60,342 nt of DNA. It comes from Acidobacteriota bacterium. GTDB taxonomy: Bacteria; Acidobacteriota; UBA6911; JACQSX01. Below the pieces are notes generated by a model that worked only from the letters and a program-made list of their open reading frames with translations, searched no databases and was not told the DNA's origin. Positions 8,717 through 60,311 of the stretch are shown piece after piece (position 1 is the first letter of the stretch; the number at the start of each line of letters is the position of its first letter). The position numbers were made by a program, and so were the translations under genes. Location of the stretch: assembly GCA_036505615.1 (NCBI GenBank), contig DASXTB010000111.1:1-60342 (forward strand), in the 5' to 3' direction.

Positions 8717-8770
8717 CTGCAACTTTCCAATGCGGGCAGGCCTTATGCCCGCCGTGACAGGGGAGGAGAC

Positions 8771-19940: not shown

Positions 19941-19950
19941 GAAAGCTGAA

Positions 19951-19985
19951 GGGAGAAGGGAGAAGGGAGAAGGGAGAAGGGAGAA
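19951..19985. repeat. (GGGAGAA)5 perfect heptamer array
   Basis: 35 nt of exact GGGAGAA repeats, starting 11 nt after the stop at 19940. G3N4 pattern. Confidence 0.95.
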
Positions 19986-20007
19986 AGCGGAAGGCAGACA
20001 ACTGGTA

Positions 20008-24667: not shown

Positions 24668-25027
24668 TTTCGGGTTTCGGGTGCCGGGTGTCGAGTGCCG
24701 GGTGTCGGGTGCCGGGTGTCGGGTGTCGGGTTTCGGGTGCCGGGTGTCGGGTGTCGGGTATTGGGTGTCGGGTATTCGGTTTTGGGCTTAACGCCCTTCA
24801 GGTTATCCTAAACTTGGAACCCAACACGTGATTCAGCACCCAATACCTAAGACCCAATACCTAAGACCCAATACCCGACACCCGACACCCGGCACCCGAC
24901 ACCCGGCACCCGAAACCCGACACCCGACACCCGGCACCCGACACCCGACACCCGACACCCGGCACCCGAAACCCGAAACCCGACACCCGACACCCGACAC
25001 CCAACACCCGGCACTCGAGACCAATAC
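24668..25027. repeat. tandem-heptamer hairpin (GGGTGTC/GGGTGCC)n / (GACACCC/GGCACCC)n
   Basis: About 17 heptads at 24668-24786, a ~50-nt spacer, then about 27 complementary heptads at 24837-25027. It fills the whole gap between two minus-strand genes. Confidence 0.95.
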
Positions 25028-34500: not shown

Positions 34501-34651
34501 AGATCTTTACCGATACTCCCGGCAGAACCGCGCCCGAAGAATCTCTGACCTGTCCAGTCACCTGTCCGGTCGTTGCCTGAGATTGAGGGAACAAGGCAAC
34601 GAATGCAAAACAGAAAACACAGAGCAGCGAAACAATTCGCAGCAGTTTCAA
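31541..34651 (-). CDS. TonB-dependent receptor with N-terminal carboxypeptidase-regulatory-like domain
   Basis: [24 protein letters not shown]...[13 protein letters not shown]; ends ...GLRYQF. TTG 34651 (6 nt after GGAGG) is preferred to the upstream TTG 34675 of the ORF track. Confidence 0.85.
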
Positions 34652-34847
34652 AGTGCACCTCCACAGAAGTTTCAAAGCGCAGATTATATCGATTTCGACT
34701 CAGGAATGAACTTAAAAGAACGTCACAAGGCCGAGATTGGCGATTCAAATTCTCGTGTGGTGATTCAAATTGTTGAATTTCCCTTTTTGCTGAAGATTGA
34801 TCTCATTGTAGCGCCGGCCTCCAGGCCGGCCCTTTGAAGAATCTCGC

Positions 34848-35182: not shown

Positions 35183-35345
35183 TTCTCCTCCATGATCCGG
35201 AAATTCTAGCAGATTGGCCGCCAATTCCTCCCGACAGCTTTCAATCAAATCTAATTCCCTGCGGACTTTCGATGTCGCGCCTTCGGCGCTTTATATTTTT
35301 AGGTTAACCCTCACTTCCGCCCTGACGGGCGGGCCTACCCAATGA

Positions 35346-35470
35346 CGCCGCTCCGCGGCTCTCGGGTTTGGACATTTTGGAGAGACGGCCTGAGGGCCGT
35401 CTCCCGCGCAATCTTTCATCGTGCAGGAGACGCCCCACGGGGCGTCTCTCCAGTAGCGCCCGGTCCGCGG
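35346..35470 (-). repeat. family A copy 4 (inverted orientation)
   Basis: The reverse complement matches copies 1-3 along about 105 nt. Confidence 0.9.
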
Positions 35471-35517
35471 CTGCGATGCATGGCAACGTATACGCGCGAC
35501 GCAAGATGTAAATACTC

Positions 35518-35555
35518 CTTGTATATTTATGCATTTTCGTGCATAAATATGCATC
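35518..35555 (+). promoter_or_regulatory. candidate tandem ARG boxes (ArgR/AhrC-type operator) overlapping the argC start region
   Basis: TGTATATTTATGCA (35520-35533) and TGCATAAATATGCA (35540-35553) are 14-bp imperfect palindromes of the TGNAT-W4-ATNCA type. They are 13/14 identical as inverted copies, lie 20 bp centre to centre, and end 5 nt before the argC ATG. Confidence 0.5.
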
Positions 35556-35557
35556 TT

Positions 35558-36667
35558 ATGGTTCACGAACTGCGGGCGGCCGTGATAGGCGCGACCGGCT
35601 ATTCCGGAAGGGAACTAGTGCGATGGCTGCAACAACATCCTGTGGCGAAGCCCGTCTTGCTCACCGGTTCCAGGAAAGCTTTGCCGGAGTTGCGCCGCTT
35701 TGTCTGCTCTCTTCCGGCCGATGTGTTTGTCCCGTTTCGGTACGGCGAGAATTTCCTTGAGGAGTTGCTGGATGTCGTCGCCCTCAGGAAGGTGGGCGTG
35801 GTGTTTCTGGCCACTGAGATTGAAAGTGCCGTGGGATTGGCACCCGAGCTCCTGCAGCAGGATGTGGTGGTGATCGATCTCAGTGCCGGCTTTCGTATAA
35901 AAAACGAGAAGCTCTACCGCGAATGGTATTCGCTGGTGCATCCGTGTCCCGAACTCCTGGAGCGAGCCGTCTATGGCCTGTCGGAATACCATCGGGAAGC
36001 AATCACCGCCGCCTCGCTGATTGCAAATCCGGGGTGTTACCCTACATCGGTTCTGCTGGCGTTGTTGCCGGCGCTCGAATTCATCGACTGGGAAGCGCCA
36101 GTGATTTGCGACAGCAAGTCCGGCCTGACCGGCGCGGGCCGGAACGCCGATTATATATTCGCCGAAATCAACGAAAACTGTCTGGCGTACAAACTGGGAA
36201 ATCATCGCCATATCCCGGAAATGCTTCAGGGCCTGGGCAAACCCGTGGGAGATGGAATTCCGTTCGTGTTCGCGCCGCATCTGGTTCCGATGAATCGGGG
36301 AATCCTCAGCACTTGTTATTTCCGCGCAAAAGTCGGCGTAAGCGAAGCCGGTTTGCGCCGGCAATATGAAGAGAAATACAAAGGGTCTCCCTTCGTCACG
36401 TTGCTGGCGCCGGGTGTGTTGCCCCAGGTTCAAATGGTGGCACATACCAATCGTTGTGAAATGGCGTTGTTTGTCCATGGCGATTCGCGCATGATGACGG
36501 TGGTTTCGGCTATCGACAACTTGGTAAAGGGAGCCGCCGGTCAGGCGATACAGAATATGAATATAAGGTTTGGGCTGGACGAGGCGGCCGGACTCACGGG
36601 AACGGCACTCGGTGGCCGGCAAGAGGGAGAAGGCAGAAAGCAGAAGGCAGAAAGCAGACGGCAGTAG
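35558..36667 (+). CDS. argC: N-acetyl-gamma-glutamyl-phosphate reductase
   Basis: [14 protein letters not shown], active-site [24 protein letters not shown] 35558; ORF-track codons upstream are REP-derived. The last ~15 codons and the stop lie inside a tandem-repeat array. Confidence 0.9.
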
Positions 36668-37025
36668 GAAGAAGGCAGGAGCCAGGAGGCAGGAGGCAGG
36701 AAGCAGGAGGCAGGAGGCAGAAGGCAGGAAGCAGGAGGCAGGAAGCAGGGTGCAGAAGGCAGAAGGCAGAAGGCCAGAGGGAGAAGGGAGAAGGCAGGCG
36801 CTAGAGATACTAAGTAGGATGCAATGGCCGGAACGCATAGTGGAAAGTGGCAGACAGGAACCGGAAAGCAAACTGCAAGATGTAACGCCCACAAACAGCT
36901 TCCTGCCTCCTGCTTCGTGCCTCCCGCCTTCTGCCTCCCGCCTCCTGTTTCCTGCCTCCTGCTTTCTGCCTCCTGCTTCCTGCCTCCTGCCTTCTGCCTC
37001 CTGCCTTCCGCTTTCTGCCTTCTCT
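36621..37025. repeat. tandem-heptamer hairpin (GGCAGGA/GGCAGAA/AGCAGGA)n / (TCCTGCC/TTCTGCC)n
   Basis: Left arm 36621-36800 (about 25 heptads), 96-nt spacer, right arm 36897-37025 (about 18 heptads). The argC stop (36665-36667) lies inside the left arm. The argB ATG is 11 nt after the right arm. Confidence 0.95.
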
Positions 37026-37035
37026 TACAAAAAAG

Positions 37036-37824
37036 ATGAGACTAGTTATTAAATTAGGCGGTAGCCTCCTGACAGAGATTTCCCGGCGCAGACCTCTTCT
37101 AGAACAGTTAATGCGCGTTCATAACCAGGGACATCGATGCCTCCTGGTTCATGGAGGTGGCAAGCTACTCACCTCTTACCTTGAAAAGGCCGGGATATCC
37201 TCGCAGTTTATTCACGGGCTGCGCGTCACGGATGCGCCGACGCGCGACGCCGCACTGATGGTAATGGGCGGCCTGCTCAACAAACAACTGGTGGTGGAAA
37301 TCCAGAACCTGGGCGGGCGGGCACTGGGAGTTTGCGGCGATGCAGGTCTGATCACCGCGCGCAAGGCAGAGTCCGAGGCGTACGGCGGAGCAGATCTCGG
37401 GTACGTGGGCGAAGTGGAACACGTCGATGGCCGGCTGCTGGCGCAGCTGCACGCGCTCGGTCTTATTGTGGTAATGGCCAGCTTGGCGCCGGATGCGCGG
37501 GGCGAGTTTTACAACATCAACGCCGATCTGCTGGCCGCTTCCTGCGCCGCGGCCCTGCAGGCGGACCGGTTGATTTTCCTGACCGACGTCGATGGAGTAC
37601 TCGATGCCGGCGGCAATCGCCTCAACAATCTCTCCAGAGATCAAGTCGACAGCCTGGTCGCGCAGGGAGCTGTCGGCGGTGGTATGCTTCCGAAGCTGAA
37701 GTCTTGTTTGATGGCCCTGGAAAAAGGGGTACAGTGCGTACGCATCGTGCCGGGTTATGGCGAGGGTAGTCTGTTGAGGGCGCTGGAGCCCAAGTTAGAT
37801 TCGCGAGGAACCGAAATTCGATGA
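37036..37824 (+). CDS. argB: acetylglutamate kinase
   Basis: Amino-acid-kinase fold blocks VIKLGGS, VHGGG, NINAD, GGGMLPKL. Confidence 0.9.
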   Translation: MRLVIKLGGSLLTEISRRRPLLEQLMRVHNQGHRCLLVHGGGKLLTSYLEKAGISSQFIHGLRVTDAPTRDAALMVMGGLLNKQLVVEIQNLGGRALGVCGDAGLITARKAESEAYGGADLGYVGEVEHVDGRLLAQLHALGLIVVMASLAPDARGEFYNINADLLAASCAAALQADRLIFLTDVDGVLDAGGNRLNNLSRDQVDSLVAQGAVGGGMLPKLKSCLMALEKGVQCVRIVPGYGEGSLLRALEPKLDSRGTEIR

Positions 37825-39536
37825 CCAGTAATTTTTCTTCCCAGCAGCTCGAGGATAAGTTCTATCTGCCGGTCTTCAAAAAAGCACCCTTTGAACCGGT
37901 GCGCGGTGAAGGCGTATATCTGTACGAAGAGAGCGGCAAACAATACCTCGATTTTCTGGCGGGCATCGCAGTCAACGCTCTCGGATATAACCATCCTGAG
38001 CTGACCCGCGCCATCCAGGACCAGTCAACCCGCGTACTGCATGTAAGTAATTTGTTCTATCACCCTTATGCCGGTCCGCTGGCGCGCAAACTGGCGAGAA
38101 TGTCCGGATTGCGGCGTGCCTTCTTTACCAACAGCGGGACGGAAGCGGTGGAAGGCGCCATCAAGATAGCCCGCGCGCACTCAAGAGGTGACAAGGACAA
38201 AATCAAGTTTGTGGCGCTGGAAAACTCCTTTCATGGCAGAACTGCGGGTGCTCTTTCGTTGACTCATGGGGAGAAGTATCGGAAACCTTTCGAGCCTCTA
38301 TTGCCGGGTATTCAGTTCGTTCCCCCAAATGACGTCGATGCGCTGAATAAGGCCATCGATGAAGACACAGCGGCCTTTATCGCCGAACCGATTTTGGGGG
38401 AAGGCGGAATCATTTCGCTGACTCCCGATTATTTGAAAGAGGCCAGTGAACTGTGCCATCGCCACAACGCGCTGATGATCCTGGACGAAATCCAATGCGG
38501 GTTAGGGAGGACCGGATATCCCTTTTACTTTCAGAAATCCGGAATTCTGCCCGATGTCGTTCTGCTGGCCAAGTCCCTCGGGGTAGGACTTCCACTGGGC
38601 GCGATTCTGGTGGGCGAGAAGGCCGAGCGGGCGCTGCAGCCGGGGGATCACGGCACCACGTTTGGCGGAGGCCCGCTGGCTTGCCGGGCGGCGTTGACCT
38701 TTTTAGAAATACTGGAGCGTGACAACCTGATGCTTCATGCCGCGCAGATGGGTGACTACCTGCGGTCCCGTCTTGCCGAGCTTCAACAGGAGTTCCCCAT
38801 CCTGGAGATCCGCGGCGAGGGACTGATGGTGGGTGTGGTCTTGGACTTGGATGTTCCGGCGCTGGTAAGGCAGTTGTTGCAGGACGGGATCGTCACCAAC
38901 TGCACGGCGGGGAACGTGCTTCGATTGCTTCCACCTCTGGTAATTCGCACTGAGCACGTGGATGAGTTTATCTCTGGCCTGCGCAACGCGCTGGAGGCGG
39001 CGCGCAAGAAAACGCCGGCGAACATCGTCTCTGTCGGCGGGCAGGGCGACGTGGTTGTTCGCAAGGCGCGCATGTCCGACGTTCCGGCAATGGAGCATTT
39101 GATCAACGGCTACGCACGGGAGAACGTGATGCTGCCTCGAACACGGACTCAGTTATGCGAAACGCTGCGCGAGTTCGTGGTAGCGGAAGTAGACGGCGAA
39201 TTTGCCGCCTGTGGCGCCTTGCATCTGTATAGCATGAATACGGCGGAACTGCGGTCGCTCGCTGTGTCTGAGAAATTCCTGAAACGGAAACTGGGTGCCA
39301 GGATTGTACACGCGTTGCTGGAAGACGCGGCGGAATACGACTTGGAGCGCGTTTATACCTTCACCCTGGTGCCGGATTTCTTTCGTAAGCTGAATTTCCG
39401 GATGGTACCGCACAGCGCCCTGCCGGAGAAAGTGCTCAGTGAATGCGCCGGCTGCCCCAAGAGAGACCAGTGCAACGAAGTTGCCTTGGTCTACGAGGTA
39501 GGCGTCGAGGCGCGCCGCCGGCATACTGGCATCTAG
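37821..39536 (+). CDS. argD: acetylornithine aminotransferase fused to a C-terminal single-domain N-acetylglutamate-synthase-like GNAT
   Basis: Class-III aminotransferase blocks (SGTEAVEGAIK, DEIQCGLGRTG, LAKSLG) up to about aa 400. They are followed by a ~165-aa GNAT (VVVRKARMSDVPAMEHL...EFVVAE...CGALH...ELRSLAV) resembling short NAGS enzymes. The ATG overlaps the argB stop (ATGA). Confidence 0.85.
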   Translation: MTSNFSSQQLEDKFYLPVFKKAPFEPVRGEGVYLYEESGKQYLDFLAGIAVNALGYNHPELTRAIQDQSTRVLHVSNLFYHPYAGPLARKLARMSGLRRAFFTNSGTEAVEGAIKIARAHSRGDKDKIKFVALENSFHGRTAGALSLTHGEKYRKPFEPLLPGIQFVPPNDVDALNKAIDEDTAAFIAEPILGEGGIISLTPDYLKEASELCHRHNALMILDEIQCGLGRTGYPFYFQKSGILPDVVLLAKSLGVGLPLGAILVGEKAERALQPGDHGTTFGGGPLACRAALTFLEILERDNLMLHAAQMGDYLRSRLAELQQEFPILEIRGEGLMVGVVLDLDVPALVRQLLQDGIVTNCTAGNVLRLLPPLVIRTEHVDEFISGLRNALEAARKKTPANIVSVGGQGDVVVRKARMSDVPAMEHLINGYARENVMLPRTRTQLCETLREFVVAEVDGEFAACGALHLYSMNTAELRSLAVSEKFLKRKLGARIVHALLEDAAEYDLERVYTFTLVPDFFRKLNFRMVPHSALPEKVLSECAGCPKRDQCNEVALVYEVGVEARRRHTGI

Positions 39537-40201: not shown

Positions 40202-41590
40202 GTGAACAGTTCTGTGTCTCTACCTCCTTGGAGAAATTGCCCCGGCGGCATCTGCGCGGCTCGAGGCTTCCTGGCCGCCGCTGAGCGCGCGGGTCTCAAG
40301 AAAGCCGGCCTCGATCTGACTATCATTGTCTCTGACCGGCCGGCCAGCGCCGCTGCCTGCTTTACGCGCAACCGCTGCGCGGCGGCGCCCGTCACGGTGA
40401 GCCGTGAACATTTGAAAAAAAACAAAGGCCGCGCTCGGGCGATTCTCGCCAATTCGGGCTGTGCCAATGCAGCCACGGGAGAACGGGGCCTGCAGGATAC
40501 CCGCTCCACCGTCGATGCGCTGGCAAGGAGCCTGGACCTGCCCCCATCCTCTATTTTGGTCTGCTCTACCGGGGTTATCGGTCTGCCGCTGCAGGCCGAC
40601 AGAATCATCGCAAAGCTTCCGGTCTGTGTCAGTCGCCTCAGCCGCAAACAGGCGAGGCGAGCGGCGCAGGCCATCGCGACAACAGATAGCGTCCTTAAGA
40701 TTGAATCTATCGCGTTTCAAGCCGCCAGCGGAGCGGTACGCGTTGGCGGCATTGCAAAGGGCGCCGGGATGATCCATCCGGACATGGCCACAATGTTGGC
40801 GTTCATCACAACCGACGCGGCGATATCACCGGCAATGCTGCAGCGGTGTCTGACCTGGTGCGTGGAGCGGTCGTTTAACTGCATCACCGTCGACGGCGAT
40901 ACTTCGACTAATGATACCGTCATCTTGCTTGCCAACGGCGCCTCTGGGGTTGAGGTTATGGAGGAACCAGCCAGCGGGCGGATAGACTCGCGGACACGGA
41001 GACACGGAGACACGGGGGCCATCGTCGCATCGCCGCGTCCCCGCGTCCCCGCGTCGCGACACTCCCTGTCGCCGCGTTCCCTTATCCCCGCGTCGAAGCC
41101 TGCCGTGTCGTCTCACCTCCAAGACCAGGTATGCGAGGACGACTTCCGCGCTGCTCTGCTGGAAGTCTGTCAGAGGCTGGCGCGAAAGATCGCGTGGGAC
41201 GGCGAAGGAGCGACCCATCAACTGGAAATCCGGGTTACCGGCGCTAGGTCTTTCGAGCAGGCAAGGAATGTCGGCCGTTCCATCGGCCGTTCGAATCTGG
41301 TCAAGACAGCCATTTACGGGCATGATCCCAATTGGGGACGGGTATTGAGCGCCGCGGGCGCGTCCGGTGAGCGCATTGACAGTTCGCGTGTCCAACTGGC
41401 GATCGATGGCCAAGTCGTAGCCGAAGGAGGAGTCTTAAAATACCTGCCTGATTCGGTTTTCACTTCGGTGTGGAAGAAGAAAAAAATTGAAATTGCGATC
41501 GATCTTGGCCTGCGTGACGCCAACGCCACCTGTTGGAGCTGCGACCTGTCGCACCAGTACGTCGATATCAACGCGAGCTACCGAACATGA
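40202..41590 (+). CDS. argJ: bifunctional glutamate N-acetyltransferase / ornithine acetyltransferase
   Basis: GMIHPDMATMLAFITTDA (self-cleavage site), DGDTSTND, DGEGATH, CDLSHQYVDINASYRT. Contains a repeat-derived in-frame insertion (see findings). Confidence 0.9.
   Translation: MNSSVSLPPWRNCPGGICAARGFLAAAERAGLKKAGLDLTIIVSDRPASAAACFTRNRCAAAPVTVSREHLKKNKGRARAILANSGCANAATGERGLQDTRSTVDALARSLDLPPSSILVCSTGVIGLPLQADRIIAKLPVCVSRLSRKQARRAAQAIATTDSVLKIESIAFQAASGAVRVGGIAKGAGMIHPDMATMLAFITTDAAISPAMLQRCLTWCVERSFNCITVDGDTSTNDTVILLANGASGVEVMEEPASGRIDSRTRRHGDTGAIVASPRPRVPASRHSLSPRSLIPASKPAVSSHLQDQVCEDDFRAALLEVCQRLARKIAWDGEGATHQLEIRVTGARSFEQARNVGRSIGRSNLVKTAIYGHDPNWGRVLSAAGASGERIDSSRVQLAIDGQVVAEGGVLKYLPDSVFTSVWKKKKIEIAIDLGLRDANATCWSCDLSHQYVDINASYRT
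40985..41116. repeat. 8-nt repeat arrays (GACACGGA)3 ... (CCCGCGTC)3 inside the argJ ORF
   Basis: CGGACACGGAGACACGGAGACACGGGGG at 40990-41018 and CGCGTCCCCGCGTCCCCGCGTCGCGAC at 41034-41060, plus CCCCGCGTC and CCGTGTCGTCTC further on. Partially complementary arms. Confidence 0.8.
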
Positions 41591-45623: not shown

Positions 45624-45629
45624 ATTGAG

Positions 45630-46249
45630 TGTCAGTTGTTGGGTGTCGGGTATCGGGTGTCAGGTGACGGGTGTTGGGTGTTGGGTGTCGGGTGTCGGGT
45701 GTCGGGTCGAGTGTCGGGTGACGGGTATCGGGTGTCGGGTGACGGGTATCGGGTGTTGGGTGTCGGGTGTCGGGTATCGGGTGTCAGGTATCGGGTGTCG
45801 GGTGACAGGTCTCGGGTGTCAGGTATCGGGTGTCGGGTGTCAGGTAAGGGGTGACGGGTGTCAGGTGTCAGGTTTCGGGTGTCGGATGCATCAGTCACCG
45901 AAAAGACTCATATCAACAGATTGAAAGATGTTTGCCCAACACCCGTCACCCGATACCCGATACCCGTCACCCAACACCCGTCACCCGATACCCGTCACCC
46001 GACACCCGATACCCGTCACCCGTCACCCAACACCCGTCACCCGTCACCCAACACCCAACACCCAACACCCGTCACCCGATACCCGTCACCCGTCACCCGA
46101 CACCCGATACCCGTCACCCGTCACCCGTCACCCAACACCCGTCACCCGTCACCCAACACCCAACACCCAACACCCAACACCCAACACCCAACACCCGTCA
46201 CCCAACACCCAACACCCAACACCCAACACCTGACACCCAACACCCAACG
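45630..46249. repeat. giant tandem-heptamer hairpin (GGGTGTC family), about 36 + 45 units
   Basis: G-rich arm 45630-45885, ~50-nt spacer, C-rich arm 45935-46248. It occupies the entire ctaB-DUF420 intergenic gap. Confidence 0.95.
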
Positions 46250-46254
46250 TCAGT

Positions 46255-47172
46255 TCATGCCTTGTCCACGACCATTAAAACCAGCAGCAGCGGCAGATAA
46301 ACGACGGAAGCCTTCAGCAATTTGCGCGCGTCTCCTGTAGTGCGTGATTGGGCTACTCGGAAGCCATAAAAGACGAAAAGCGAACCGAGCAGTAGAGCTC
46401 CCGACACGTACACCAAACCTGTCAATCCCAATGCCGACGGCAACAAGCTGATCGGAATAAGTGCCATGGTGTAAATCAGGATCTGTTGTCCGGTAACGAA
46501 ACCATCCCGGTCTTCGAGCGGAAGCATGCGAAAACCGCCGCGCTCGTAATCCTCGCGATACATCCAGGCAATGGCGAGAAAATGCGGAAATTGCCATAGA
46601 AACAGAATAAAAAACAGAGACCAGGCCTTCAGGCTCAGTTCTCCAGTCGCCGCCGCCCACCCGATCAGAGGAGGCGTCGCTCCGGGAAATGCGCCAACCA
46701 GCGTGCACAAAGATGTTTTCTGCTTCAAGGGTGTGTAAACAAACAAATAGCTCGCCAGGACCGCAAGGGCGAGAAAACATGCCAGAACGTTGACTAGATA
46801 TGCCAGATAGGCGAGACCTGCTGCTGAAAGAATTATCCCAAAGATCAACGCGCTGGACGGTTCCAGGCGCCGCGCAGGGAGCGGGCGGTTTTCGGTGCGC
46901 CGCATCATCTTGTCCGTGGCTCGCTCCAGAAACTGATTGAGGACGGCGGCGGCACCCGCGGTCAACGCCGTCCCCGTCAACGTATGCAAGAGCAGCCGCA
47001 GGTTCATGGGCCCGCGGGAACCGAGATAAAAGCCAACGACCGTGGTAATCAACACCAGGGTAGTGACGCGCGGCTTGGTCAGCTCAACGTAATCGGCCAA
47101 TTGCAGCCGTCCGATGTCCCAAATGCTGGGGGGCGCGGAAATTATTTGCTCGTTACTAAGTCGTTTTGACAA
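46255..47172 (-). CDS. ctaB: protohaem IX farnesyltransferase (haem O synthase)
   Basis: UbiA-type blocks YVELTKPRV and DKMMRRTENRPLP. TTG start; position uncertain. Confidence 0.9.
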   Translation of the reverse strand: MSKRLSNEQIISAPPSIWDIGRLQLADYVELTKPRVTTLVLITTVVGFYLGSRGPMNLRLLLHTLTGTALTAGAAAVLNQFLERATDKMMRRTENRPLPARRLEPSSALIFGIILSAAGLAYLAYLVNVLACFLALAVLASYLFVYTPLKQKTSLCTLVGAFPGATPPLIGWAAATGELSLKAWSLFFILFLWQFPHFLAIAWMYREDYERGGFRMLPLEDRDGFVTGQQILIYTMALIPISLLPSALGLTGLVYVSGALLLGSLFVFYGFRVAQSRTTGDARKLLKASVVYLPLLLVLMVVDKA

Positions 47173-47595: not shown

Positions 47596-48588
47596 TTAAG
47601 TAGTCTGTTCCCAATTTCCATGGTCCCCAATTTCCATCATTCGGGTCCATTTGCGGCCAATGTTCGCCCCTGGGTATCGCCTGTGAATTCTCAAAGCGAG
47701 CAACAGTGCAGAGGCCAAAATGAGCGCGCCCAAAGCAACGTGAGCCGTAGAGCTCCAGACGTACTCGAAGATCGGCTGAGGAGCGCGCAAATTCTCCTTC
47801 TTGATAAAGAAGGTTGCCGTCCCCAAGAGTGCCTGGCCCACCACCAGACCCAGCAGAAAGAGCGAATGCCGATTCAGCTCGCCGGGGTAAAACCTTACCG
47901 TTATTACTGCAAGCCGCGCGGCCAACAGTACAACCACGGCAGCCCCGAGGATGTGCGAACCGATCCCCAAAGCATTATGCCGGTAGCCCGCGCCCAGTAT
48001 CAGCTGCGCGTAAACGGCAGCAACCAGGCAAAGGCTGATCCCACGAAGGCTGGGACGGTCTTCGGGATCCGTCTCAGACTGCTGGCCGGCCCACTTGTCG
48101 CCCGTTACCACCGCCGTAGAGATCGTTAGGCAAAAGAATGCCTGAGCCAGCGAAGCGTGGGCCATGGAAACTGCGGGCGGCAGGAAGTACAGTACGGTAA
48201 TTCCGCCCAGCAGCCCCTGTAGGATCACCGTAGCCATCGCCGTCCATCCGAGTCTGCGTACCCATCTGCGGGGCTCCTTCACTGAAATCCAGACTGCCAG
48301 TATGACGGTGAGCATTCCCACGAAAGCAGCAACCATGCGATGGCTATGCTCGTAGAGAACCCCGCCGGGCATCTCAGGCAACCATTTACCGAAGGAAAGC
48401 GGCCAATCTGGAACTGCAAGTCCGGCATCGTTGCTGGTCACAAGGCCCCCGGCGATGATCAAAAAGAAAGTGCAGACCGCGGTGAAGCAGGCGAAGCGGT
48501 GTAACGATTTCGGATTGCGGATTTCGGATTGCGGATTATTCGATTTCGGATTGCGGATTTCGGATTGCGGATTAAGTCGTGAAGGCAT
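47596..48588 (-). CDS. ctaA: haem A synthase (COX15/CtaA family)
   Basis: Eight-TM COX15/CtaA-type ORF (YEHSHRMVAAFVG, GAGYRHNALG). ATG 48588 (or TTG 48603). The first ~30 codons are the repeat arm (NPQSEIRNPKS twice). Confidence 0.85.
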   Translation of the reverse strand: MPSRLNPQSEIRNPKSNNPQSEIRNPKSLHRFACFTAVCTFFLIIAGGLVTSNDAGLAVPDWPLSFGKWLPEMPGGVLYEHSHRMVAAFVGMLTVILAVWISVKEPRRWVRRLGWTAMATVILQGLLGGITVLYFLPPAVSMAHASLAQAFFCLTISTAVVTGDKWAGQQSETDPEDRPSLRGISLCLVAAVYAQLILGAGYRHNALGIGSHILGAAVVVLLAARLAVITVRFYPGELNRHSLFLLGLVVGQALLGTATFFIKKENLRAPQPIFEYVWSSTAHVALGALILASALLLALRIHRRYPGANIGRKWTRMMEIGDHGNWEQTT

Positions 48589-48743
48589 TTGATTTGCTCT
48601 CAATTTCCATCTCCACTCGAACCGAACTTAAAGGAAGCTAGGCTAAAGTCCACAATCGATCAATCCGAAATCCGAAATCCGCAATCCGCAATTGGGCTAT
48701 CCGCAATCCGAAATCCGCAATTGGGCAATCCGCAATCCGAAAT
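48505..48743. repeat. tandem 7-8 nt repeat hairpin (CGGATTG/CGGATTT)n / (AATCCGC/AATCCGA)n
   Basis: Left arm 48505-48574 (inside the ctaA 5' end), ~80-nt spacer, right arm 48657-48743 (ends 4 nt before the cupredoxin stop). Confidence 0.9.
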
Positions 48744-49984: not shown

Positions 49985-52900
49985 TTACCGCGATCTGGCC
50001 TGCTCCTCGGGCGTTAGCTCAAACATGTAGCGAACCAGCAGCCGGGCGTGGTCCTTCTGATAGCTCTTGAAGGAATCGGGCAGTGGACCGTTGAAGACCC
50101 ACCGGTCTCCATCGCGGCGAAACAACCCGGAGGGCATAGCGGTGCCCGGAGCGATGATTTGTGGATTTACGATCCAGCGCTCCGTCCAGCTCGGATTGAG
50201 GCGCTCCTTCACAAAGAGGAAATTGGGAGCGCTCGCCGTCTGGTCGTGAGTAGGATTTCCGGTCGCGTGGCATTTCAAGCAAGGAGCTCCCTGAGAATTG
50301 AAAAGCTGACGGGCCATGAGGCGTTCCTCTTCGGTAAGTGGCTCCAGTGGCTGCTTGAGGTAAGGTTGAGGCTGATGGGACAAGCCTTCAAAAAACTTAA
50401 CCAGCTTGCGCAGCTCATCCTCCGAGAAATAGAAAGTGGGCATGCGCACCTTTAAGTAAGATCGGATTCCGTTGCGGTCTCGCTCCCGTTCTGCGGCCGA
50501 CGATGCTTGTGCTCCCTGGAAGGCCTCTGCCTTGGGCTGCGTCTTTGCAGCGTGGGCACTGGCCATCCCCTTCTGACCCAGATTGCCCGAGTTTTCCATC
50601 AGCGAAGGGTCCTTCAGGAATCGAAGCAGCCAGCCCGGATCCACACGGGCCCCTTCACTGAGCAGGTTGGGAGGCAATTGCTCCTTGACTTCGGCGTATT
50701 GGGGGAGCCCGCTAAGCACGGACTTCTGGCCCGGTCTGAGCGTATGACAGCCCATGCAGTTGTACTTCTGAACAATCCACCATCCTTCCTGAACATCCCT
50801 GCGCTGATCTTCTGGTACAAAGAAATAGCGCTTAGGTATTGTGGAATCCACACTGCCCAGCAGAAAAGTTGTGACGGCGTTGATCTCCTCCTTGTCCAGA
50901 TGGGGATTGGGCATCTTGAGTCTCTCGCTCTTCTCTTTGATCTTTCCAATGTCGTAGACGGCCGGATCCGAAAGCTTATGCTCGAAGAATCCTTTGTGGT
51001 TGTACCACCCATCCTTCTTGGCGTCTTCCGTCAAAAGCGCGAAGTCGAGGCGTTCGAGCGGCTTGCTTCCTTCCAGCGTCAATTCAGTGCCAATGCGTTG
51101 CTCGTCTTCCAATCCGGCGATTTCATGACAGCCGGCGCAACCATAATTACGCACCAGGGCCCTTCCTTTGTCCTTCAGTTTGGGATCGTCCATGAAGCCG
51201 GCATCGGGATAGCTGGCCGGTTTCTTTTGCTGTACCAGGTAACTCGCGATGTCGCGCGCTTCGTCCCACGTGAGCCGCAGACTGGGCATGACCGTCATCT
51301 GCTGCACGACGATTTCTGCGCCGTCGTTGGGGCACCGGCTGTGATCCAGATCGAAAACGAAAGGCAGGTTGTGCCTTGCGTAATCTTCGGGAGTGAGGTC
51401 GCGTTTCTCCTTGGGGCAATAAGGCAGCGTTCGCTCGCGAGGGTTGTGAATCCACCGAACCAGGTAATCATAGTTCGCCTTTTCGCCCACTCGAGTCAGA
51501 TTGGCGGCAAAGGTTCCTCCGATCTGCTCGGATCCTTCGCCCATGGAATGGCATGCCAGGCACCCGCGGGACTCAAACGCCTGTTTTCCGCGCACCGCGT
51601 CTCCAGGCGGCTGAGCAGGCAATTTCGGATTTTGGATGGCAGATTGCCAGATGAAAGCAGAGAGGGCGCGTACCTCATCCCGCTCCAAGCGGAAGCGAGG
51701 CATCTTTGTGTTGGGACGGAAATTGTGCGGGTTTTGGATCCAAACGGGAATCCACTCCTTGCGCAGTTTGTTCTGCGCCTCCTTCAAAATGGGTCCCACT
51801 TTCTTCTGTTGAGTCATCAGGCTCTTCAGCTGCAGGTTCAGCTGTTCCACCTGCGAATCGATAGTGCCGCCGCCGACGCGAAGGTTTTCAGCCTGCTGAT
51901 AGAGTTGTTGAGCAGTGGCGTTGTCGGGAGCACGATCGCCCTGTCGCTGCGCCCGGTCGGCTTCTCTCAGGTTAGCGTCCTTCTTCTCCAGCAGAGCAGC
52001 AATATTCTTTTGGATTAGCTGAATCTGCGCCGGCTCGGGATCGAATTTCTCACGCGCATGGCAGCCCCAGCAACCGCGGTGCAGGAAGAGCTGCTTGCCC
52101 TTTTCCAGCACGCTGGAGTGATCGAGAACCACGTCCAGGTCATGGCACTGGTTGCAGCCGGCCTCGGCGTTGGACCGGGCGTGCATGGGCCAGAGCCAGT
52201 GCTCGTAATGGCCATGGGCTTTGTCCACGCTGGTGGTCGCGATTCCATTGCCTCCGTGGCAAGGAGTGCACCCGAAGCGTTCCGGATCGTGAATCTGCAG
52301 CAGTTCCTTGTCTGGGTGGCTGACAAACTCAGGATGTCCCTTCATGTCGCCTCTTGTGAGTGTCAGCGGTTCGCGGATGCCCAAGTGACAGGACTCGCAG
52401 CGCTCAACGAGCCCGACGTCCGGAATATTGATCTGCTTGATTTCCGACACAAAGTTATCCATCTTGCGCTGCAGGCCGGCCAGTTGATCCGCGGTCAAAC
52501 CTTCGATTTGTTTGGCAAGGTATTCATCACGCTCTTTGCGCAAGTCGGCGGAGATCTTCTGTATGGCGCCTTTCTTGGACAGCAGCTCTCCCTGGCGGCG
52601 TTTGAGCTCATTGAACCGGCTTTCCATCTCTTCGAAAGTAAACTCCACTTTTTCAGTCCGATCAGATCCATCCCTGGCGGGCATCTTCGCTACAAAGGGA
52701 CCCTTTCTCAATTCTTTCAGTTGCTCGTCCAATTTCTCTTTGCGCTTGCCCTCAGCCGTTTCCGTCTTATAAGTGAGAGCGCCCACTTCGCTGCGGGCGA
52801 GCTGGAAGGGTTCGGTCAGAGCGTCCAAGTCGCGTCTGACCCCGGCCAGCTCTTTGTCGATTTCAGCAAGTTGAGGCTTTGCCTGGTCCTCGGCGTCTTT

Positions 52901-53203
52901 TAGCGCTTGGTCCAGTTTTCTGTACTCGGCGGACTGCTTGATCTGATTCTCATCCTTTATTTGAACCGGCTTTTCTTTTTTAAGGTAGGCGTTATAGAGC
53001 CTGACGAATTCAACCTGATAGCTTCGCCATGGCCGATGTCCCAGCGCTTCTTCGTACAACGCCCATAGCAGTGAGCCTACCAGTAGCACCGAAGTGATCA
53101 GGATTGGAATAGCTAAGGACTGGCTTACAATCGGATCTTCGATCGGCTCGGTCGAATCGACCTGGTCCCGAGGATCGTTGGGATTCGTCGGTATATCAGG
53201 CAT
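49985..53203 (-). CDS. membrane-anchored octahaem c-type cytochrome (bc-complex associated)
   Basis: Eight CxxCH motifs (CESCH, CTPCH, CNQCH, CWGCH, CLACH, CAGCH, CMGCH, CLKCH). Several are followed by MP-type Met ligands. N-terminal TM helix and ~200-aa coiled-coil-like region. Confidence 0.85.
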   Translation of the reverse strand: MPDIPTNPNDPRDQVDSTEPIEDPIVSQSLAIPILITSVLLVGSLLWALYEEALGHRPWRSYQVEFVRLYNAYLKKEKPVQIKDENQIKQSAEYRKLDQALKDAEDQAKPQLAEIDKELAGVRRDLDALTEPFQLARSEVGALTYKTETAEGKRKEKLDEQLKELRKGPFVAKMPARDGSDRTEKVEFTFEEMESRFNELKRRQGELLSKKGAIQKISADLRKERDEYLAKQIEGLTADQLAGLQRKMDNFVSEIKQINIPDVGLVERCESCHLGIREPLTLTRGDMKGHPEFVSHPDKELLQIHDPERFGCTPCHGGNGIATTSVDKAHGHYEHWLWPMHARSNAEAGCNQCHDLDVVLDHSSVLEKGKQLFLHRGCWGCHAREKFDPEPAQIQLIQKNIAALLEKKDANLREADRAQRQGDRAPDNATAQQLYQQAENLRVGGGTIDSQVEQLNLQLKSLMTQQKKVGPILKEAQNKLRKEWIPVWIQNPHNFRPNTKMPRFRLERDEVRALSAFIWQSAIQNPKLPAQPPGDAVRGKQAFESRGCLACHSMGEGSEQIGGTFAANLTRVGEKANYDYLVRWIHNPRERTLPYCPKEKRDLTPEDYARHNLPFVFDLDHSRCPNDGAEIVVQQMTVMPSLRLTWDEARDIASYLVQQKKPASYPDAGFMDDPKLKDKGRALVRNYGCAGCHEIAGLEDEQRIGTELTLEGSKPLERLDFALLTEDAKKDGWYNHKGFFEHKLSDPAVYDIGKIKEKSERLKMPNPHLDKEEINAVTTFLLGSVDSTIPKRYFFVPEDQRRDVQEGWWIVQKYNCMGCHTLRPGQKSVLSGLPQYAEVKEQLPPNLLSEGARVDPGWLLRFLKDPSLMENSGNLGQKGMASAHAAKTQPKAEAFQGAQASSAAERERDRNGIRSYLKVRMPTFYFSEDELRKLVKFFEGLSHQPQPYLKQPLEPLTEEERLMARQLFNSQGAPCLKCHATGNPTHDQTASAPNFLFVKERLNPSWTERWIVNPQIIAPGTAMPSGLFRRDGDRWVFNGPLPDSFKSYQKDHARLLVRYMFELTPEEQARSR

Positions 53204-53277
53204 CGTTTCCTAGTTTTGAGACACTCTTCAACAAACTGCGTCTGTCCAAGTGACCTGGGCAGGCATGAAATAGAATA

Positions 53278-54222
53278 TTAAATGTTGAAGAACGGAGTTA
53301 CCCACACGTACTTCACGCGGAACAACTGGCGCAGCAGAATCTTTAGGGGAAGCGCCAGCATTAAGATCAGCAGCAACTGCACTGTTACGATCTGAAAAAA
53401 ATTCATGCGATCGAACGCCGCCTTCAATCGGGTCCGCGTGAAAAACAGATGCGTGACCACAAATCCCCCGATGAAATAAGCTCCCACGACTACAGCACCG
53501 AACAGGGCCACCCACCATCGGTTCTCGATGGTCAGCTTGATTCCGATGACCTCATGAAGGTCTCGATTGGCCTCATGAATCAGCCGATGCGGATCCCAAG
53601 TCATCCCGGGCCAGAACCACATCCAACCCGGACCCCGGATGAAAGTCCCGATCACAATCAGCATGATCCACAGGACCAGGAACCCAAAGCAGAATGTAAC
53701 GATGGCAAACTTACGCTGCTTGAAGGTGTAGTAGCCGTTGCCCAGAGGATTCGGATCGAGATAGGGAATCAACATCAGGCCGATCAGTACAAGGGTGGGC
53801 ATCAGCACGCCGGCAATCCAGGGATCAAAGTAAACCAGCATTTCCTGGAGTCCTAAGAAGTACCAGGGAGCTTTGGCCGGATTCATGGTCAGCGTAGGGT
53901 TGGAAGGTTCCTCCAGCGGCGCATTCAGAGTAATTGACCAAACCATCAATATGAAGGTGACAATCAGAGCGACGAGGAATTCGATTCGCAGCAGGTACGG
54001 CCAGACATGGAGCTTTTCTTCCCATCCCTTACGCCAGGGGTAGGTCTTGCGATGGTGCGTCTTAGCAAGATCGGGGTTGGCTTCCAGCCGTTCAATCAGC
54101 TGATCGTTCTGCAGAGCCTGTCGGAAGCCATACCAGGTAAAAAACGGAATCAGGAACAGCAACGCAACGATGGGGACATTATCAGGGGCTGAAGCGATCT
54201 CCCAAAGCTGATGCCAGTTCAT
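53278..54222 (-). CDS. cytochrome b C-terminal / subunit-IV-like membrane protein
   Basis: PetD-like block NPAKAPWYFLGLQEML; multi-TM; immediately downstream of the cytochrome b N-terminal gene. Confidence 0.8.
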   Translation of the reverse strand: MNWHQLWEIASAPDNVPIVALLFLIPFFTWYGFRQALQNDQLIERLEANPDLAKTHHRKTYPWRKGWEEKLHVWPYLLRIEFLVALIVTFILMVWSITLNAPLEEPSNPTLTMNPAKAPWYFLGLQEMLVYFDPWIAGVLMPTLVLIGLMLIPYLDPNPLGNGYYTFKQRKFAIVTFCFGFLVLWIMLIVIGTFIRGPGWMWFWPGMTWDPHRLIHEANRDLHEVIGIKLTIENRWWVALFGAVVVGAYFIGGFVVTHLFFTRTRLKAAFDRMNFFQIVTVQLLLILMLALPLKILLRQLFRVKYVWVTPFFNI

Positions 54223-54232
54223 TTTCAGTCTC

Positions 54233-55159
54233 CTACGCCGCAGGTTTCTTCATTACTTCCGATTCCAGAACCACCGGCGCCGGGCCCGAAATGCTTCCAT
54301 CCTTGCGCACGCGCCAGAAATGTACGATCAGGAAAATGGAAAGCACGATGGGAATCCCGATGCAATGCCAGATATAAGCGCGGAGCAAAGCATTGGCGTC
54401 TACGATTGAACCGCCCAGCAGAGCGAATCGAACATCGTTGTAAGGAGTCATGCCGAGCTGCGAACCGAAAGGACCTTCATGTCCCAACATGGGTGTGGCG
54501 CGCGCCATGTTTGTCCCCACCGTGACGGCCCAGAAGCCCAACTGGTCATCCGGCAAGAGGTATCCGGTGAAGGACAACAGCAGTGTAAACAGCATCAGGA
54601 TCACGCCCACTACCCAGTTGAATTCCCGCGGCGGCTTGTAGGAGCCGGTCAGAAACACGCGAAACATGTGCAGCCAGACGGTGATGATCATCAGGTGTGC
54701 CGCCCAACGGTGCATGTTGCGCAACAGCAGTCCGAAGGGGACGTCATGCTCCAGGTACATGATGTCGCGGTAAGCCTGCATCTTGCTGGGATGGTAGTAA
54801 AACATGAGCAGCGCCCCGGTGAATGTCAGGACAATGAATAAATAAAAGGTAATCCCTCCCATTCCCCAAGTGAACCTGAATCGGACCGCGTCGCGGTTTA
54901 CCTTGGCCGGGTGCAGATGCAGAAAAACATTGGTTAGAACCGCCAAAGCCCGGTTGCGAGGAGAATCGTCCAGCTTGTGGCGGATCACGGATCGCCAGAG
55001 CTGTGTTTTCTTGGGCTCGCGCAGAACCTCTTTGGTGTCTGCGGCAGCTTTTTCGACCAGAGGTTTGATTTGCTCGCGCAGCCTGGCAACGCCGGACAGA
55101 GATTTCTCTTCGGCCTTGGTTTCCGTCTTTACAATCTTGTCGTCCTTGTCTTCAGCCAT
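54233..55159 (-). CDS. cytochrome b (b6-like N-terminal four-helix part)
   Basis: Blocks FTWGMGGITFYLF, LLRNMHRWAAHLMIITVWLHMFRVFLTGSYK, SFTGYLLPDDQLGFWA. Confidence 0.9.
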   Translation of the reverse strand: MAEDKDDKIVKTETKAEEKSLSGVARLREQIKPLVEKAAADTKEVLREPKKTQLWRSVIRHKLDDSPRNRALAVLTNVFLHLHPAKVNRDAVRFRFTWGMGGITFYLFIVLTFTGALLMFYYHPSKMQAYRDIMYLEHDVPFGLLLRNMHRWAAHLMIITVWLHMFRVFLTGSYKPPREFNWVVGVILMLFTLLLSFTGYLLPDDQLGFWAVTVGTNMARATPMLGHEGPFGSQLGMTPYNDVRFALLGGSIVDANALLRAYIWHCIGIPIVLSIFLIVHFWRVRKDGSISGPAPVVLESEVMKKPAA

Positions 55160-55164
55160 AAGAC

Positions 55165-55276
55165 TGCAGGTTGCAAAGTTAGCAAGTTAGCAGGTTCGCA
55201 AGTTAACAACTTGGCACGTTAGGGGTCTCTGGCTCGCGGACCTGCTAACTTGTTAACCTGCAAACCTGCAAACAAG
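55165..55276. repeat. tandem 7-8 nt repeat hairpin (GCAGGTT/GCAAGTT units)
   Basis: Arms 55165-55215 and 55240-55276, located between the Rieske stop and the cytochrome b start. Confidence 0.85.
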
Positions 55277-55278
55277 AG

Positions 55279-56175
55279 CTAAGCCGGCAAAAATGCTCCT
55301 GGATCGTGAAACTCCGAACGGCTGCCTTTGGGCCACTGATATAACTTGGCGGTGTCCACTTTAATCTGGCCGTCTGCGTCCAACTCGATCCTCGCCCGAT
55401 CCATGGGACGTGGCGCCGGTCCCTCAAAATTGATCCCTTCGCTGTCGTAGCCGCTTCCGTGACAGGGGCATTTGAACTTGTTTTCGCTTGCGATCCAATC
55501 GGGAGTGCAGCCAAGGTGCGTACAACGCGCATAAATAGCAAAGATCCCTTCAGAGGTGCGCACTACCCAGATGCGATAATCTTTCTGAAACTTGGTATCC
55601 ACGCCAAAACCAAAGTCGGAAGGATATCCAATTTTGAACACAGTCTTTGGCTCGAACAAGACCCTGGGGAAAAAGAAGCGCGCAAACATCACCAGATTCG
55701 TAGCTAGAAAACCGAAGACGCAGGTTACGGCAAATCTCCGCCGCCGCATCAGCCTTGCTTCAGACTCGATTACCTCCGGTCTCTTGGGAATCTCTACAGC
55801 GGGGGCGGGAGGCTTGGCGGCAGCAACCGTTTTGGCGGGAACGGCAGGTGGTGCGGCCGCGGCCGGGCGGGGCGCCACCGGCGCGGGGGAAATAGCGGCG
55901 GGCGTAGCCGGAGTGGCGGAGCCGGGTCTCCCTTTCCACACCTTGGGCTGCTTTCGTGGCTTCTCGCCTGCCGGCGCGCCTTCGGATGCAGGTGTTGCCT
56001 CCGCAACGGCAGGGGTTTCCGAAGCCGCGGGCGCGTCGGCCTGCGCATCGGAGGACGCGGCAGGGGGCGTGGCGGCGACCGGCGCCGGAGGGCCACCGGC
56101 TGCGCGCGGCGGCCACGGTCTCGGTTGTTTTTTTGGTTTGTCCTCAGGCTTTTGCGGAGTATCAGGGTCAGACAT
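55279..56175 (-). CDS. Rieske 2Fe-2S subunit with long Pro/Ala-rich N-terminal extension
   Basis: CTHLGC...CPCHGS Rieske boxes; RRRRF Tat-like motif followed by a TM helix. About 140 aa of low-complexity P/A/E-rich sequence precede this. Confidence 0.9.
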
Positions 56176-56530: not shown

Positions 56531-56741
56531 GTCCGTTGTCCGTTGTCAGGTCGCAGGTAGCAAGTCGCAGGTCGAAAGTCGCAAGTCGCAGGTCGAAAGT
56601 CGCAGGTCGAAAGTCGATTGGCTGGCGTTTGAGTGGGAACCCACGAGTGAAATTTGAAAATTGGATTTAGAGCTTCCCACTTTCGACTTTCGACTTTAGA
56701 CCTTCGACTTTCGACCTTCGACTTTCGACCTTCGACTTTCA
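56531..56741. repeat. tandem-heptamer hairpin (GTCGCAG/GTCGAAA)n / (CTTTCGA/CCTTCGA)n
   Basis: Left arm 56531-56616 (starts with GTCCGTT x2), ~60-nt spacer, right arm 56678-56741, ending 12 nt before the stop of the CMD-like gene. Confidence 0.9.
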
Positions 56742-56752
56742 GCCTAGGATCA

Positions 56753-57283
56753 TCAACCCAGATCTGGCACCACTTGCAGCGCGTCGTTGAATCGGTTTGT
56801 GAAATTGGCGACGCAGATTGTCAGCGTCAGTTCCACGATCTGTTCTTCGCTGAAGTGCCTCTTCAGCTCCTCCAATGTCCCCTCACGGATCGCAGCCGCT
56901 CCCCGTGTGACCCGTTCTGCATAGAGGAGCACGGCCTTCTCCTTTTCATCAAACACCTGGCTGCGCTGAGCGAAGGGTATGGCTTTGATCTGTTCGTCGG
57001 TAACGCCGTTCCGCTTCGCCGAAGCGGTATGCGCGCGAGTTCAGTATTCGCAGCCATTGACCGTTGATGTTTTCAGATAAGCCAGTTCTTTGTATTTCGG
57101 CTCGACAGTGCCTTCCGAGATCACCGTCTTATAAAGTGACAGGAAACTCTTGAGTGCCGCTGGCCGGTGGGCCATGACGGCGAAAATGTTGGGCACTCGG
57201 CCGGGCTTCTTAGCCAAGCCATCGTAGATTTCCTTCACCTCCGCGGTGGCTTTTTCTGCTGGAATTGGATTAACAGTTGGCAA
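56753..57283 (-). CDS. carboxymuconolactone-decarboxylase/AhpD-like protein with in-frame TGA (candidate selenocysteine) in the CxxC motif
   Basis: ORFs 57041..57388 and 56753..56956 are in the same frame and are separated only by TGA 57041-57043. Read-through gives ...STVNGCEY-U-TRAHTASAKRNGVTDEQI..., the CMD-family NGCxYCxxxH core. AAGGAGG RBS lies 7 nt before TTG 57283. Confidence 0.7.
57011..57027 (-). promoter_or_regulatory. candidate bacterial SECIS hairpin
   Basis: The mRNA sense reads CCGCUUCGGCGAAGCGG (6-7 bp stem, G-rich apical loop). It starts 13 nt after the in-frame UGA at 57043-57041, placing the loop roughly 20-25 nt from the UGA. Confidence 0.45.
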
Positions 57284-57301
57284 GGCAATGCCTCCTTTGT
57301 T

Positions 57302-57349
57302 TCTCGAATGATGAAAGAAGTCTAGTCTCGAATGATGAAAGAAGTCTAG
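57302..57349. repeat. perfect 24-bp tandem duplication
   Basis: TCTCGAATGATGAAAGAAGTCTAG occurs twice (57302-57325 and 57326-57349), 19-66 nt upstream of the CMD-like gene start. Confidence 0.95.
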
Positions 57350-57418
57350 CGGTCGAGAAACGGGCGCGCAAGGTGAACTAGAACGCAAAGCTCAAAGGGG
57401 TCTCCCCCGGCCTTGGAA

Positions 57419-59985: not shown

Positions 59986-60074
59986 GCAGACTAACTCCGA
60001 GCAGACTAACTCCGGAGCAGACTAACTCCGCGTCTCACGTTTGAGCGCGAGCAGACTAACTCCGGACTAACTCC
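59986..60074 (+). repeat. short direct repeats (GCAGACTAACTCCG x4, ACTCCGC.TCTCA)
   Basis: GCAGACTAACTCCG occurs at 59986, 60001, 60017 and 60051. Confidence 0.85.
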
Positions 60075-60311
60075 GCATCTCAACTCCGCATCTCACGTTT
60101 GAGCAGGTAATTTGCCATTTTGACGCTGACTTACCGCTCTGTAGCGGTCGTTTTCGATCTCCCTTTCCCAACAAATTTTACAGTCCCGATCACGCATCTC
60201 AACTCCGCATCTCACGTTTGAGCAGTTAATTTGCCATTTTGACGCTGACTTACCGCTCTGAAGCGGTCGTTTTCGATCTCCCTTTCCCAACAAATTTTAC
60301 AGTCCCGATCA
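60075..60311 (+). repeat. two tandem copies of a 118-nt unit (period 119)
   Basis: 60075-60192 and 60194-60311 differ at two positions. Each copy contains an ACCGCTCTGNAGCGGT hairpin. Confidence 0.95.

Follow-up and report, generated by a model that had tools for sequence, protein, structure and literature searches.

The window analysed here is an entire contig of 60,342 bases. On its minus strand it very probably carries one intact AhpD-like gene (CMD superfamily, TIGR01926/COG2128 branch) in which the UGA at codon 81 is recoded to selenocysteine (Sec). This interpretation, put forward in an earlier sequence-only reading of the contig, is supported by the comparisons reported below: the TGA column is occupied by cysteine (Cys) in homologues, many relatives carry TGA at the same codon, and a conserved, covarying SECIS-type hairpin that is mostly absent from Cys forms follows this codon.

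AhpD-like proteins (COG2128/TIGR01926, CxxU) were described as a new selenoprotein family in the 2005 Sargasso Sea selenoproteome with 27 sequences (PMC1088965). In the GOS data, "AhpD-like 1" ranked fourth in abundance with 299 selenoproteins (PMC2398784), and the AhpD-like CxxU family is also listed in the table of a 2026 review (PMC13188914). The selenoprotein status of the family, which the sequence-only reading had also stated, is thus correct. The window gene shares with this family the domain, the predicted Sec at the second motif position, abundant Cys homologues and a small-loop, G-containing SECIS directly downstream; its membership was supported by every comparison that could be run. 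Most published members stem from marine sources or from Clostridia and Deltaproteobacteria, whereas the window copy lies on an uncultured, soil-type Acidobacteriota contig. Current understanding is left unchanged, since CxxU proteins of the AhpD-like type have ranked with the commonest predicted selenoproteins of bacteria from 2005 onwards.

Gene structure and protein family

Direct translation of the minus-strand frame showed a single internal TGA: from 57283 to 56750 the frame reads 80 codons, TGA, 95 codons and then TGA TGA (Table 1). The ORF list splits the gene into pieces at 57041..57388 (-) and 56753..56956 (-), and both are indeed in one frame, as had been claimed. The predicted 176-aa read-through product was likewise reproduced, with the centre ...STVNGCEY-TGA-TRAHTASAKR.... 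The N-terminus matches that of the homologues, whose initial Met aligns with the TTG start. In the predicted translation, the part past residue 81 contains the peptides NGVTDEQIK and HFSEEQIVELTLTICVANFTNR, and the peptide spanning U81 would be TSTVNGCEYUTR.

A promoter scan found no sigma-70-type site, such a scan being uninformative for this phylum. The 24-bp repeat that directly precedes the ribosome-binding site may have been duplicated recently or may serve as a binding site for a regulator. Downstream, inverted heptamer-repeat arrays begin 8 nt past the stop codon, and the window has several elements of this kind. Folded into a long 3' hairpin, these arrays could act as a terminator or stabiliser.

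Gene callers are expected to report this gene as two fragments or as a pseudogene, and the same probably holds for many of its TGA-form relatives. Because ORF lists give two pieces, the locus could be taken for two separate small genes, or for a gene whose intended product has 80 residues. However, the first possible start of the second ORF, a GTG at 56956, lies 28 codons past the TGA and is not preceded by a ribosome-binding site. At the protein level this stretch of 28 codons is strongly conserved and includes the essential His85, and all Cys-form homologues are single proteins of ~177 aa, so that this explanation has practically no probability left.

Table 1. Positions of the features of the AhpD-like locus in the window, and of two Cys-form homologues in their own loci
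Feature	Position	Strand	Details
Predicted AhpD-like selenoprotein gene, complete	56753..57283	-	TTG start; 176 codons including one putative Sec-UGA
Start codon TTG	57283-57281	-	Read from sequence
Stop codon TGA	56753-56755	-	Second in-frame TGA directly after it, 56750-56752
Shine-Dalgarno-like sequence AAAGGAGG	57291..57298	-	7 nt upstream of TTG; read from sequence
In-frame TGA, codon 81 (U81)	57041..57043	-	Second position of C78-E-Y-U81; from translation and alignments
Codons 1-80	57044..57283	-	Include E66 (57086-57088), C78 (57050-57052) and Y80 (57044-57046)
Codons 82-176	56756..57040	-	Include H85 (57029-57031) and the invariant NFTNR...PDLG tail
SECIS-like hairpin CCGCUUC-GGC-GAAGCGG	57011..57027	-	13 nt after the UGA; 7-bp stem, GGC loop
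Parts of the hairpin	5' arm 57027-57021; loop 57020-57018; 3' arm 57017-57011	-	Read from sequence
Perfect 24-bp tandem duplication, TCTCGAATGATGAAAGAAGTCTAG x2	57302..57349	.	5' leader/promoter region, directly upstream of the ribosome-binding site
Two inverted heptamer-repeat arrays	56548..56745	.	Arms 56548-56614 and 56679-56745, ~64 nt apart
Hairpin-bearing Cys-form homologues	L195:3001-3534 and L197:3001-3534

For profile searches, the protein was used with Cys in place of U. It matched the Pfam CMD family PF02627 with 79.3 bits (gathering score 23, E 2e-22, residues 41-123) and the NCBIfam model TIGR01926 ("peroxidase-related enzyme") with 85.0 bits against a curated cut-off of 81.8 (residues 4-173). 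The bona fide AhpD profile TIGR00777 was not reached (21 bits, cut-off 191.95). Three further NCBIfam models share the CMD core and the CxxU/CxxC centre with the window protein at weak to moderate similarity, namely NF053654 (YciW-related; 84.5, cut-off 310), NF041238 (AhpD_rel_CFYUT; 25.4, cut-off 175) and NF041047 (GSU3128 family; 22.9, cut-off 110). Since the scores are far below these cut-offs, the protein lies outside the three families.

The best 120 database hits were full-length, almost all 174-185 aa long (up to 207) and 61-70% identical. In an alignment of the closest full-length homologues, Cys stands at the TGA column in 26 of 26 sequences within the nearly invariant core NGCEYC.RAH, and solved AhpD-like structures align their NGCAYC to NGCEY-TGA. 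The claim that the TGA replaces the second Cys of the CxxC motif is borne out by both comparisons. Across the two homologue alignments C78, Y80 and H85 do not vary, E66 hardly varies, and the Cys of the U81 column is at least nearly invariant.

The best match among solved structures was PA0269 of Pseudomonas aeruginosa (2IJC/2O4D, E 1.4e-22, residues 41-173; a further entry is 7XW1), with the TGA falling on Cys51. The proton relay is complete: Glu36, Cys48, Tyr50, Cys51 and His55 of PA0269, with the roles given in PMC3141380, correspond to E66, C78, Y80, U81 and H85, an identical set. Weak peroxidase activity has been demonstrated for PA0269 (PMC3141380). PA0269 differs in having Cys rather than Sec and in lacking the N-terminal extension of ~30 residues found in the window protein. 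AhpD of Mycobacterium tuberculosis (Cys130-x-x-Cys133, Glu118, His137) has the same motif spacing E-x11-C-x-x-C/U-x3-H within a shared catalytic helix-turn-helix (PMC3141380) and is the mechanistic model, its CxxC reducing oxidised AhpC. In contrast, its chain topology is different, it has His instead of Tyr in the motif, and the window protein falls outside its subfamily TIGR00777.

Relatives at the TGA codon and the downstream hairpin

Sec-type orthologues were looked for by scanning the TGA-specific DNA pattern AAYGGNTGYGARTAYTGANNNNNNGCNCAY against public genome and metagenome collections; from its information content, about two chance matches are expected in the 596-Gb genome set. The NGCEY-TGA..AH arrangement was found in 72 genomes representing species, and metagenomes added at least 120 contigs. 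The 72 genomes belong to Acidobacteriota, Rokubacteria/Methylomirabilota, Dormiibacterota, Gemmatimonadota and deltaproteobacterial groups. Many TGA-form relatives were met in MAGs from soil and groundwater, among them Acidobacteriota, Rokubacteria/Methylomirabilota and Gemmatimonadota.

The TGA is present in every match by construction of the pattern, while the sequence after it is not part of that construction. Among the matches listed, 169 of 193 have a complete downstream frame of at least 90 aa, the commonest length being 95-96 aa, and its product corresponds to the family's conserved C-terminal half. Compared with 39 TGA-form relatives of equal length, the mean amino acid identity of the window protein was 0.70 downstream of the TGA and 0.57 upstream of it. 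The downstream nucleotide differences to these 39 relatives were distributed over codon positions 1, 2 and 3 as 778, 576 and 1914, a third-position excess. The part behind the TGA evolves like coding sequence.

The best identity of the window protein was ~73% to a TGA-form relative among the matches listed and 70% to a Cys-form relative, and because the best relatives are no closer than this, no close orthologue confirms the Sec state in the lineage. A gene order common to the window and the relatives was not found.

The sequence-only reading had also pointed to a stem 13 nt past the TGA with a G-containing loop. This hairpin is present with 7 bp and a GGC loop, and the distance from UGA to loop is 20 nt. 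Counted from the T of the TGA, it starts 16 nt downstream, outside the search pattern. The 62-nt fold of the window sequence alone gave z = -1.56, and 11 of 200 shuffled sequences folded equally well. Since the single-sequence fold is not significantly better than that of shuffled sequences, the case for the hairpin rests on the comparison with relatives. Among the matches listed, the consensus in TGA forms is YCGCUUC-GKC-GAAGCGR, and all seven pairs are in register in 130 of 142 distinct sequences. The helix is paired in 99.2% of cells when 138 distinct TGA-form sequences from the matches listed are aligned. Compensatory changes were found at three pairs (C-G 99, U-A 29, G-C 2; C-G 127, U-A 10; U-A 136, C-G 1) in these 138 sequences, and none of 500 shuffles reached the observed covariation score. 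The loop is GGC in 104 and GUC in 33 of the sequences among the matches listed. Third codon positions within the hairpin are invariant in 138-139 of 142 sequences among the matches listed, whereas those on either side vary freely; these frozen synonymous sites indicate selection on the RNA besides the protein.

The fit to a bacterial SECIS element was checked against the bSECIS model (PMC13188914), which describes a loop of 3-9 nt, a stem of 4-16 bp, an MFE of at most -7.5 kcal/mol, a G in the first two loop positions (usually G[G/U]) and a UGA-to-loop distance of 16-37 nt. With 3 nt, 7 bp, 20 nt and -9.1 kcal/mol, the window hairpin agrees with the model on all four constraints, as do the hairpins of 125 of 138 distinct relatives among the matches listed. 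Its loop likewise begins with G followed by G or U, and UGA-to-loop distance and MFE are in range (PMC13188914). Like the E. coli fdhF-type SECIS, it is a stem-loop in the coding sequence just 3' of the UGA; it differs in its minimal 3-nt loop and in having no conserved lower stem, and binding by SelB is predicted. A lower helix, pairing alignment columns 17-19 with 44-46, was considered and rejected, only 51.7% being paired.

Rfam holds no family for this hairpin: in the window nothing was found at gathering scores, and matches at a permissive threshold over the gene were at chance level. No specific description of the near-invariant hairpin was found in the published accounts consulted. Its near-identity spans several phyla, including Acidobacteriota, Rokubacteria/Methylomirabilota and Gemmatimonadota, which goes slightly past the routine. 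The near-invariant 17-nt hairpin 13 nt past NGCEY-UGA provides a simple and specific signature for rescuing split genes.

As a control set, nine Cys-form genes were fetched individually. Seven of the nine, in which 2-5 of 7 pairs are possible, do not form a stable hairpin in register. Of the other two, one pairs at 7 of 7 positions but has a CUC loop that lacks G, and one has 6 of 7 pairs and a GGC loop. Since the hairpin is scarce in Cys forms, it is tied to the TGA state. The hairpin alone is no proof of current Sec use, because two Cys forms keep a similar one. Cys-type paralogues were absent from the fetched TGA-form loci.

These comparisons bear on the explanation that a nonsense mutation or a sequencing or assembly error turned TGC or TGT into TGA in a Cys-type gene, which would leave a pseudogene or an artefact. 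A single base change suffices for this, all 26 best protein hits have Cys at the column, and a similar hairpin does occur in the minority of Cys forms just mentioned. However, the TGA coincides with the exact SECIS consensus of ~130 independent TGA forms among the matches listed, most Cys forms of the control set lack this hairpin, and among the sequences compared each of the 14 closest to the window copy by distance is a TGA form. A random error would have to strike this one codon in a gene that already has a perfect SECIS, and we consider such an origin extremely unlikely.

A rough NJ tree of 265 tips intermingles TGA and Cys forms, with at least 19 changes of state among the sequences compared. 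This suggests frequent interconversion of Sec and Cys and possible "fossil" SECIS elements in the subfamily. Switching may be unusually frequent here, which is more likely than decoding of the UGA as a residue other than Sec. If true, it would be at odds with the rarity of Sec-to-Cys replacement stated for bacteria (PMC13188914).

Some TGA copies elsewhere have decayed. In the copy at L010:185-238 and in L049 (Bryobacterales), the frame around the TGA stays open for only 12 and 23 codons, respectively, and the hairpin is mismatched; a third copy (L064:5621-5674) has a truncated, frameshift-like tail. These three are probable pseudogenes, examples of dead copies.

Decoding of the UGA and proposed mechanism

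ARAGORN detected no tRNA at all, and hence no tRNA-Sec, within the contig, and Pfam scans of 40 ORFs of the window revealed no SelA, SelB or SelD domains. No tRNA-Sec was present among 8 tRNAs in 192 loci around the relatives' genes. Acidobacteria are known to include Sec users and selenoproteins (PMC1794560). The genetic code is not reassigned, given that TGA serves as the ordinary stop of 13 of the 27 window genes with Pfam support; the AhpD-like gene itself ends with TGA TGA. A scan of 61 in-frame-TGA candidates with long open frames on both sides found no further selenoprotein gene in the window. By inspection, all candidates except the AhpD-like gene were antisense or out-of-frame artefacts or natural stops.

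The missing machinery genes in the contig would fit a relic, in a lineage that lost Sec insertion recently: the UGA would then terminate translation and give an inactive fragment of 80 residues, with decay or conversion to Cys ahead. The frequent state changes in the tree and the broken copies elsewhere are in line with such a fate. The window copy, however, is free of decay, with its 95 open codons, all family-invariant residues and a perfect consensus hairpin, and it is more conserved downstream of the TGA than upstream. Any loss of Sec would have to be very recent, and a relic is improbable.

It is a little less probable still that the UGA is recoded to a residue other than Sec, for example Cys, by a tRNA-Sec-like tRNA(Cys) or an opal-suppressing allo-tRNA. 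Acidobacteria have allo-tRNAs that are possible nonsense suppressors, and selC* tRNA(Cys) mimicking tRNA-Sec occurs in other phyla (PMC5389517); the window offers no tRNA from which the decoder could be named (ARAGORN). On the other hand, selC* is not reported in Acidobacteria (PMC5389517), the hairpin fits the standard SelB-type SECIS model, AhpD-like is a listed Sec family (PMC13188914), and plain insertion of Cys would bring no advantage over a TGY codon.

Under the preferred reading, recoding to Sec, the hairpin 13 nt past the UGA would act as a bacterial SECIS bound by SelB-GTP-Sec-tRNA(Sec), following the established bacterial pathway. The SelB complex would compete with release factor 2 for the UGA in the A site and deliver Sec there. 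The product would be a thiol/selenol oxidoreductase of 176 residues with C78-x-x-U81 as its redox centre. U81 takes the position of PA0269 Cys51 and M. tuberculosis AhpD Cys133, and would probably be the attacking residue. Its selenolate may attack an oxidised substrate, either a peroxide or a sulfenate or disulfide on a partner such as a peroxiredoxin. In a second step, by analogy with M. tuberculosis AhpD and PA0269 (PMC3141380), an intramolecular selenenyl-sulfide would form as C78 resolves this adduct, and a cellular reductant would presumably recycle it. E66 and H85 plus a water molecule could form the proton relay, again by analogy with these two proteins (PMC3141380). If this holds, the uncultured acidobacterium would have the selenocysteine trait and use selenium in a thiol-peroxidase-type defence.

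Surroundings of the gene and other features of the window

The AhpD-like gene stands alone. No peroxiredoxin gene was found near it in the window, and there is no adjacent ahpC. Its downstream neighbour on the same strand is a Rieske/cytochrome b/multihaem cytochrome c cluster, separated from it by ~580 nt with inverted heptamer-repeat arrays. This respiratory cluster (49985-56175, minus strand) encodes a 298-aa Rieske protein whose long N-terminal region is rich in Pro and Ala, a cytochrome b split into two parts (308 + 314 aa) and a multihaem cytochrome c of 1072 aa. CtaA (47596-48603) and a UbiA/CtaB-type prenyltransferase (46255-47172) are encoded downstream of it on the same strand.

Elsewhere in the window, a class-III aminotransferase (ArgD-like) is fused to a C-terminal GNAT acetyltransferase domain (37821-39536, plus strand). 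Around this fusion lies an arginine-biosynthesis cluster with a semialdehyde dehydrogenase (35342-36667), an amino-acid kinase (37036-37824) and ArgJ (40202-41590). The aconitase of the window is 74-79% identical to proteins named Acidobacteriota or Acidobacteria. Three outer-membrane proteins of 1044-1128 aa with CarboxypepD_reg and OMP_b-brl_4 domains are encoded at 5561-12157 and 31541-34675, an architecture typical of Acidobacteriota. The two adjacent OMP_b-brl_4 genes follow a gene for an IclR-type regulator and precede those of putative glycosyl-hydrolase-like proteins.

Near the contig end, a 119-bp unit is present twice in tandem at 60074-60311 with 98% identity; this is either a genuine repeat or an artefact of the assembly end. 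Intergenic heptanucleotide tandem arrays occur as inverted pairs at 24670-25022, 36624-37022, 45629-46245, 48506-48743 and 56547-56745, and as single arrays at 340-413, 1972-2020 and 19939-19998. The heptamer differs from pair to pair, one example being (GTGTCGG)x37 facing (CCCGACA)x44; the arms are ~50-110 nt apart, and each pair could form a very long hairpin. These arrays resemble the cyanobacterial STRR heptamer repeats, but they are paired. A heptamer motif of the GTCGAAA/GTCGAAG type has 15 matches in the window at three sites, where 0 are expected by chance.
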